Position numbers and translations under genes: made by a program. A stretch of DNA of 64,000 bases from contig OY762492.1 in the NCBI GenBank assembly GCA_963665845.2, positions 416,001 to 480,000 of the forward strand, in the 5' to 3' direction. Origin of the DNA: Candidatus Poribacteria bacterium. Its GTDB lineage: Bacteria > Poribacteria > WGA-4E > GCA-2687025. The notes below the pieces were generated by a model. That model made no database searches. It saw only the letters and a list, made by a program, of their open reading frames with translations, and was not told where the DNA came from. Each line of letters opens with the position of its first letter. Within the stretch, counting starts at the first letter, position 1. Of this stretch, positions 53,723 to 54,517 are shown one piece after another.

Positions 53723-53939
53723 GATTTTCCGCTCCAATCCCGCTTGTTTAACGTATCATACATCCGCTTCGGAGAGAGCGCAACTCAACCTTCCTGACGG
53801 CAGTTCGCTTATACAGGGATATTCGCGGCGCGCGTCCGATTCCTCTGACCTTATGCATAAAGTTGGGACCTTTGAACCGACAATCGCTCTATTCATGAGA
53901 AAAAGGCGCCGCTAACCAGACCGTCATTTGTATGATGAT

Positions 53940-54135
53940 CTTGCCCCTCGAGTAAGCGCATACTTAAGGGGTAGCGCGGTGAGACTCCAGACCGTCTTGG
54001 GCGCGTTGCTTCGCAGCGGCGCCGTGCGGGAGTATCGAGAGCCGCGCAAAGAAGACAAGAAAGACCGGAGGCTCCGCACAGATACAGTGTTCTTGTTACA
54101 GAATACAAGTTGGGAGGCCGGTCCTCCTTGTCCTT
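53940..54135 (+). ncRNA. Putative IS110 bridge RNA (5' stem-loop, target-binding loop, donor-binding loop)
   Basis: Hand-folded stems TGCCCCT/AGGGGTA, GCGCGG/CCGCGC, GACAAG-GACCGG/CCGGTC-CTTGTC; loop segments AGACCGTCT and GCGGGAG match the flanks; ATACAAG matches the element end; -10 box TATGAT at 53931-53936. Confidence 0.75.
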
Positions 54136-54157
54136 TTCTCCTGAAAGGAGAACGAAA

Positions 54158-54372
54158 ATGACCATACCACGCAACGACGCAAACAACAACAAAATCGCCG
54201 CCGGAATCGACGTGTCCAAAGACACGCTTGAAATCTCCATCAACGGCGGGGAAACTTCCACCATCAAAAACGCCGCGAGCCCCATCAAGCGGTTCATCAA
54301 ACGCCTCCTGACGACCCACCCCAACATCAACATGGTCGTCTTTGAACCGACCGGCGGATACGAGCGGAAACT
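54158..54372 (+). pseudogene. IS110 recombinase N-terminal fragment (71 codons, partial DEDD RuvC-like domain)
   Basis: AAGGAG RBS; MTIPRNDANNNKIAAGIDVSKDTLE...VVFEPTGGYERK; ends abruptly at the junction. Confidence 0.85.
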
Positions 54373-54517
54373 CCCGCGCAAGCAGGAATCCAGAGGCGCC
54401 GCAGATGACGTCCGCGTTCGCCTGCCGGCATGTCCCAACCAAAAACGTAAGGTCAGTGGATTTCCCCTAGACATTGCATTATATTGGACGCATGAGAGAA
54501 ACGATCAAGGAGCGGTC

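Follow-up and report, generated by a model that had tools for sequence, protein, structure and literature searches.

A shortened IS621-like IS110 element in a REP-like palindrome of Candidatus Poribacteria, with a likely bridge RNA and full-length copies that join TT-core sites to CT-core ends

The insert, its target and its full-length copies

The window analysed here comprises 64,000 nucleotides of a Candidatus Poribacteria genome (contig OY762492.1, positions 416,001 to 480,000, forward strand), in which a REP-like palindrome of the form GTCA-TTCCCGC-N4-GCGGGAA-TC is split by a 444-bp insert (53929–54372) flanked by AGACCGTCATT and CCCGC, as a first-pass annotation made from the letters alone had also read it. 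On the left, ACCGTCA and the target core TT make up positions 1–9 of the target (53920–53928, + strand), with GTCA-TT present in 10/10 copies; on the right, a CT precedes the right target half CCCGC (54371–54377, +), with the same CT-CCCGC in full copies, and the right half of the palindrome, recognised from its sequence and from the counts of its family in the genome, runs from 54373 to 54391 (+). In the 3.98-Mb genome, GTCATTCCCGC is present in 997 copies. The two empty target alleles proposed earlier are both found in the window sequence, an exact one at 29361–29376 (−) and one with a single mismatch at 9975–9990 (+). Filled and empty alleles differ solely by the element, so there is no target duplication; the earlier statement to that effect nevertheless holds only loosely, as one T is common to both junctions of the 444-bp insert.

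The insert matches ten other places in the genome, seven at 91–98% identity, two at 69–74% and one, partial, at 79%, and nine of the ten are full elements of 1537–1552 bp. We assign it to the 5′ part of an IS621-like IS110 element: it covers the initial 444 bp of an element of 1.54 kb, whose seven closest full copies are those at 91–98%, and, with the ends mapped on the full copies, it is without the ~1.1 kb (1,099 bp) that precede the exact right crossover. An unbroken recombinase frame of 397–400 residues from an ATG is kept in 4/9 full copies, the other five having a frameshift or stop. PF01548 (DEDD RuvC-like) and PF02371 (C-terminal) score above cut-off in full copies, the recombinase aligns with those of ISCro4 (E 1.6e-29) and IS621 (E 1.3e-27), both over residues 15–317, and D18, E63, D105, D108 and S244 align with the IS621 catalytic places, which places the full elements, as judged by their sequences, in the IS110 family (IS110 group). 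The window retains the first 71 codons of this recombinase (54158–54372, +; from alignment to full copies), with D18 and E63 inside, ending at an internal CT. Alone, this frame reaches only E 0.21 against PF01548; seven full IS110 genes of the genome, though, begin with a stretch 86–99% identical to it, in agreement with the IS110 identity first given to the 71-codon frame.

The recombinases of this clade (P0001–P0008, P0012 and P0014) carry an 80–90-residue low-complexity tail, and relatives at ~40% identity mostly stop near 315 residues. In the window, the truncated recombinase frame stays free of stops through the repeat and into a DNA methylase-HNH gene (54158–55828, +; PF01555, PF01844), giving a fused frame of 556 codons; the methylase has its own start at 54518, and we treated the in-frame read-through as chance.

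All nine full copies end in TTGACTTTGAAC-ACAGATA-CT followed by the right half of the repeat, and not in the CAGTGTT-CT that had been predicted for full copies (0/9). At the left junctions GTCA-TT (10/10) is followed by TGTAT in nine copies and by TACAT in one; in the window this right donor half, TGTAT, is the start of the element (53929–53933, +), and IS621 starts alike. All ten insertions lie on the GTCA side of the palindrome, which holds 771 of 1710 arms (p 3.5e-4), and 8/10 insertion sites start with NCC compared with 31% of free sites (p 0.002; a feature chosen post hoc). The target reads NNNGTCA-TT-CCCGC with no bulge; of the earlier proposal of a TT core with a 2-nt bulge, the TT at the left junction stands, and the bulge is not needed in the corrected register.

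A putative −10 box, TATGAT, which the first-pass annotation had also seen, lies at the very start of the element (53931–53936, +), and a candidate −35 box, TTGACT, is found in 9/9 right ends of full copies. Joined ends would give TTGACT-N17-TATGAT (spacing computed on one full copy), so that the earlier suggestion of a junction-formed promoter agrees with the sequence. By analogy with IS621, excision would yield a circle in which ACAGATA-CT-TGTAT is the junction and this promoter is rebuilt, and a single conservative crossover would permit that one junction only. Contigs of eight public runs, which are uninformative on circles, listed no end-to-start joint of the element. The window remnant has lost the right-end −35 box together with the left donor half, and the copy is likely immobile. 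It was also considered as a non-autonomous, MITE-like IS110 derivative, a view we rejected on the loss of the left donor half and its single copy in the genome. The right end of full copies further contains a strong long hairpin just before the −35 box (L052 2905–3043; z −3.4).

Among 176 genomes of the phylum, the right-junction pattern occurs in two, the present genome (G000) and that of a second species of the same genus (G001), and it was found in no viral contig; plasmid matches are all below 60% identity. Related loci number one at 36% identity in genome contigs and 23 at 28–42% in metagenome contigs. In a sponge metagenome run (X6), a relative ~90% identical to the element is represented by a contig of 1,398 bases, and one RNA run covers parts of a relative as assembled contigs, which cannot indicate transcription.

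Remnants and footprints at the right crossover

The window copy joins a gene-internal GCGGAAA-CT to the right half of the repeat, and much shorter derivatives share its right boundary. In G001 we found three 12-bp footprints of the form GTCATT-TACATGATTA-CT-CCCGC and one 11-bp form, and a further footprint lies in G000 at C1:3524960; in each, the element breaks off after its first bases, at an internal CT, and the right target half follows directly. All six derivatives, the window copy and the five footprints of 11–12 bp, end at the same base, the element's right crossover, and they come from two different internal sites in two species. Because all of them end exactly at this crossover, we consider them likely to be imprecise excisions made by the recombinase, the window copy having likely formed when the enzyme took the internal CT (GCGGAAA-CT) for its true end. 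A 12-bp footprint cannot be a circle, which suggests that the donor site itself was altered, beyond copy-out alone.

The same crossover recurs among the repeats of G000, where the left side is odd for 29 of 893 right halves; a CT lies exactly at the crossover in 16 of the 29, made up of the nine full elements and seven more. At C1:523382 the left half of the repeat is fused to a gene, at a place where three intact paralogues read AGA-TT-TGTATG (the reciprocal joint of this rearrangement was searched for and not found), and at C1:3739056 the right half follows ACAGATA-CT within an HNH gene fragment, with the residue spacing kept. Both joints look like half-match events; two 2026 preprints (10.64898/2026.08.31.748434, 10.64898/2026.08.14.744561) describe such IS110 products, and also partial circles in which one true end is reused. 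We judge that the window remnant, the footprints and the half-match joints are, as a set, probably products of the recombinase.

Other repeats of G000 are altered as well. Those at C1:630785 (+) and 2683231 (−) read CGTA-CT-CCCGC instead of CGTCA-TT-CCCGC, and are possibly excision scars that keep donor positions 7–9. At C1:1481910 (+) and 3777329 (−), repeat halves are joined at CT directly upstream of genes, and the reverse-strand GGGAGGA there may serve as a ribosome-binding site.

Two other histories of these sequences have to be weighed. The first accepts the bridge system as described here and attributes the remnant and footprints to host deletions across microhomology of 3–4 bases (ACT/TACT). 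Every deletion joint does have ACT or TACT on both sides, all scars together show microhomology of 3–9 bases, and in G001 the composite repeats around two of the three 12-bp footprints resemble each other, so that one origin is conceivable for this pair. Against host deletion stand the shared right-junction base of six derivatives from two internal sites and two species, the 16 of 29 odd-sided right halves with CT exactly at the crossover, and the half-match and partial-circle products known from the preprints cited above, and we regard it as an unlikely competitor. The second holds that the window copy is a reinserted partial circle, its left junction joined to the internal CT, and not the residue of a deletion in place. 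Either route yields the same sequence, 4 of the 81 CT sites inside the element agree with the left donor half at 4/7 positions, the site used here being one of them, and reinsertion of partial IS110 circles is reported in a 2026 preprint; but the copy is single in the genome, such a circle would be without a −35 box, and the 11–12-bp footprints cannot be circles, so in-place deletion does occur. This route, too, seems to us unlikely for the window copy.

The scars bear on the live question of whether IS110 elements depart by copying or by cutting out, because a 12-bp chromosomal footprint needs a changed donor site.

The predicted bridge RNA and the unequal cores

The computed fold of the non-coding left end, the 229 bp upstream of the recombinase gene, shows a 5′ hairpin followed by two long stem-loops (z −3.6; 0/200 shuffles as good), so that the three-module layout drawn by hand in the first-pass annotation, including its 5′ hairpin at 53942–53973 (+), was recovered. 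In the predicted target-binding loop (53974–54047, +), the left target guide ACCGTCTTG (53991–53999, +) matches target positions 1–6 and 8 (T), with mismatches at positions 7 and 9 in 9/10 copies, and the right target guide with its handshake bases, GCGGG-AG-TA (54026–54034, +), is invariant in 10/10 copies and is the exact complement of the product junction TA-CT-CCCGC. The predicted donor-binding loop (54054–54133, +), obtained by folding with the guides held unpaired, takes the same open shape in 10/10 copies across three stem sequences. Its left donor guide ACAGATAC (54078–54085, +), covering donor positions 1–8, matches the right end of 9/9 full copies, with a mismatch at position 9 in 6/10 copies; its right donor guide with handshake bases is ATACA-AG-TT (54103–54111, +), of which 54103–54109 complement CT-TGTAT. 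In the copy at C1:746698 the element start TACAT is accompanied by the guide ATGTAAG, one compensatory change between element start and right donor guide.

Three of the loop segments picked out at the start, AGACCGTCT (53989–53997), GCGGGAG (54026–54032) and ATACAAG (54103–54109), are in place, and both the target loop and ATACAAG as right donor guide were read correctly. The left donor guide was not: the segment then proposed, CAGTGTTCT (54085–54093), matches 0/9 right ends and forms an inner-stem arm in the unconstrained fold, and the true guide is found in the donor loop as well, 7 nt further upstream.

When searched for in the left end, the four corrected site halves match best at 7/8, 9/9, 8/8 and 7/7; none of 5000 shuffles reached all four, and 139, 7, 4 and 32 reached each singly, the queries having been picked after the junctions were seen. 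RNAalifold found two-sided changes in 7/63 pairs, drawn from about four related sequence types. The loops open only when the guides are kept unpaired, at a cost of ~12 kcal/mol, the free RNA pairing parts of the guides, and a scan of 53700–54600 against Rfam 15 gave two chance hits only and no relevant family. From fold and guide matches, a bridge RNA that directs insertion is the likely product of the left end; nine full copies, the fold and the guide matches together uphold the IS621-like family, the bridge-RNA layout and the repeat as target, as originally put forward.

Two further left ends of G000 deserve mention. The copy at C1:1533503 (L060) is a mosaic that combines the common type of 5′ hairpin and target loop with the divergent type of donor loop and gene, and loops therefore seem to be swapped between copies. 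An orphan, decayed left end lies without a recombinase at C1:2788103–2788333 (L061); there is a short inner stem in its target loop, and its left guide TCCGTCAT matches the repeat at 8/8 positions.

The target might instead be chosen mainly by the protein or by the hairpin of the repeat, with a minor part for the left target guide. This guide does have two mismatches in most copies, sites vary at positions 1–3, and a target stem-loop adds specificity for ISPpu10 according to 10.64898/2026.03.19.712850. However, the same right half stands on both sides of the palindrome and yet the left guide matches the side used in 10/10 insertions, and the right guide, complementary over 9 bases, does not vary between copies; we hold this explanation to be improbable. 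The model first proposed, with target AGACCGT-CT-CCCGC, donor CAGTGTT-CT-TGTAT and insertion with a 2-nt bulge, drew on a loop segment AGACCGTC that matches the flank over 8 bases, and it can be set aside: its target has no copy in the genome, where the real register is that given above, CAGTGTT is in 0/9 right ends, keeping CAGTGTTCT unpaired abolishes the inner stem of the donor loop, and copies differ freely in the CAGTGTTCT stretch but all share ACAGAT.

With the guides assigned, the core (positions 8–9) differs between the two partners. In G000 the target core is TT at 10/10 left junctions and the donor core CT at 9/9 right junctions, and in G001 the figures are 8/8 left ends with TT and 9/9 right ends with CT, from searches that did not specify the core and on contigs that break inside the element, with the guides outside view. 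Two of these nine right ends carry variant donor halves: the stubs L063 and L138 read ACAGGTA-CT and ACCGATG-CT and are still joined to repeat halves, L063 following a direct repeat of ~170 bp. The CT version of the target, GTCACTCCCGC, occurs once in G000, outside the repeats. Only the T at position 9 is shared between target and donor core. At position 8 the left target guide has T in 10/10 copies and the left donor guide C in 8/10 and T in 2/10, and the left guides thus encode the TT/CT difference themselves. A relative in the same family (L022 in G007) has CT at both junctions, by eye. We found no natural mismatch of target and donor core in print, in searches that reached few subscription papers; preprint supplements may hold cases. 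Two recombinase changes near the core, A61 to P and N84 to H, were tried as correlates and are not tied to the mismatch, because both are common among 120 homologues in a crude pattern count.

For IS621, cleavage is reported to fall after position 9 on the top strands and between 9* and 10* on the bottom strands, with T9 read by the protein and C8 not (PMC11208158), and products have an unligated bottom strand and mismatches beside the core (PMC13626964). On IS621 numbering, the recombinase here would exchange the two top strands through cuts after position 9, and TT at the left with CT at the right, as seen, is what such an exchange would be expected to leave. With bottom strands cut further left, as in IS621, positions 6–9 would be heteroduplex, here CATT against TACT, and the difference at position 8 would likely be tolerated as one added mismatch, a G-T wobble settled for the top strand. 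Pairs over positions 6–9 change on exchange from 5 to 6 in two copies, from 5 to 7 in two and from 6 to 6 in six; this favours insertion in 4/10 and is neutral in 6/10, and the mismatch is therefore no clear driver of direction. The handshake bases of the target loop favour the exchanged state in 10/10 copies.

We hold with good confidence that the insert is an internally deleted IS621-like IS110 copy, that the full copies occupy TT sites with CT ends, and that the left end is likely a bridge RNA. Element ends, target, family and guide matches have a direct basis in sequence, and the mechanism is modelled on IS621. The roughly twenty natural insertions across a C/T core mismatch indicate that the matched-core rule can bend. 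In bridge editors, target and donor cores are identical and differing cores serve to keep two guides apart (10.64898/2026.04.29.721476); a bent rule would widen the choice of targets and weaken such core-based insulation for C/T pairs.

A more far-reaching reading, which we put forward tentatively and think somewhat less probable than its opposite, is that for this natural recombinase a TT-core target and a CT-core donor are invariably the partners, with the core acting as a ratchet. Insertion would turn the G-T wobble of the target loop into a G-C pair, the TT left junction would be a poor excision substrate, and the enzyme would then cut out from an internal CT, leaving 12-bp footprints, remnants and repeat-to-gene rearrangements as scars. 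If this is true, these genomes archive natural double-strand cut-out and half-match events, and what holds for bridge editors as a matching-core rule is no more than a position-9 rule.

Comparison with known systems

It is already established that IS110 elements reside in REP sequences, that left ends encode bridge RNAs and that promoters form at junctions; a REP-targeting IS110 bridge element is a textbook case, the remnant itself being ordinary. Among the closest described systems is IS621 of E. coli (PMC11208160, PMC11208158, PMC13626964; PDB 8wt6), with which the element shares the domain layout and catalytic residues, a long left end with a 5′ hairpin and two looped stems, the start CT-TGTAT, the junction promoter, a REP target, the T at position 9 and handshake bases in the target loop that complement donor positions 6–7; in the supplement of PMC11208160, IS621 starts CT-TGTAT and carries ACAGTATC in its left end. 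The element differs from IS621 in pairing a TT target core with a CT donor core (CT and CT in IS621), in having position 7 common to target and donor, in a right target guide complementary over 5 target bases, and in an Ala/Ser/Glu-rich protein tail of ~80 residues. The IS621 design code in the same supplement rejects unequal cores with a CoreMismatchError.

ISCro4 (IS622; PDB 9t56; 10.1101/2025.05.14.653916) is the best match among solved structures (E 1.6e-29) and follows the same bridge logic; its published use combines matching cores with a non-matching position 7, the opposite of the natural pair here. ISPpu9 and ISPpu10 of Pseudomonas putida (PMC12288879; 10.64898/2026.03.19.712850) are likewise IS110 elements in REP palindromes, and ISPpu9 has alternative circles and shortened derivatives (PMC12288879), as there are shortened copies here; unlike the present element, they have the same dinucleotide at both ends (AG and CT, respectively). 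In Neisseria, the Nf1 prophage/IS110 transposase system at dRS3 (PMC7058167) similarly has an IS110-type enzyme that uses an ATTCCC-N8-GGGAAT repeat, in that case a dRS3 subtype with a conserved CT in the spacer, whereas the crossover here falls at the TT of the ATTCCC arm. Seen against these systems, and as judged from its ends and guides, the element is a new IS621-like element with a readable predicted bridge RNA, one that very probably works as IS621 does but lacks the matched core of IS621.
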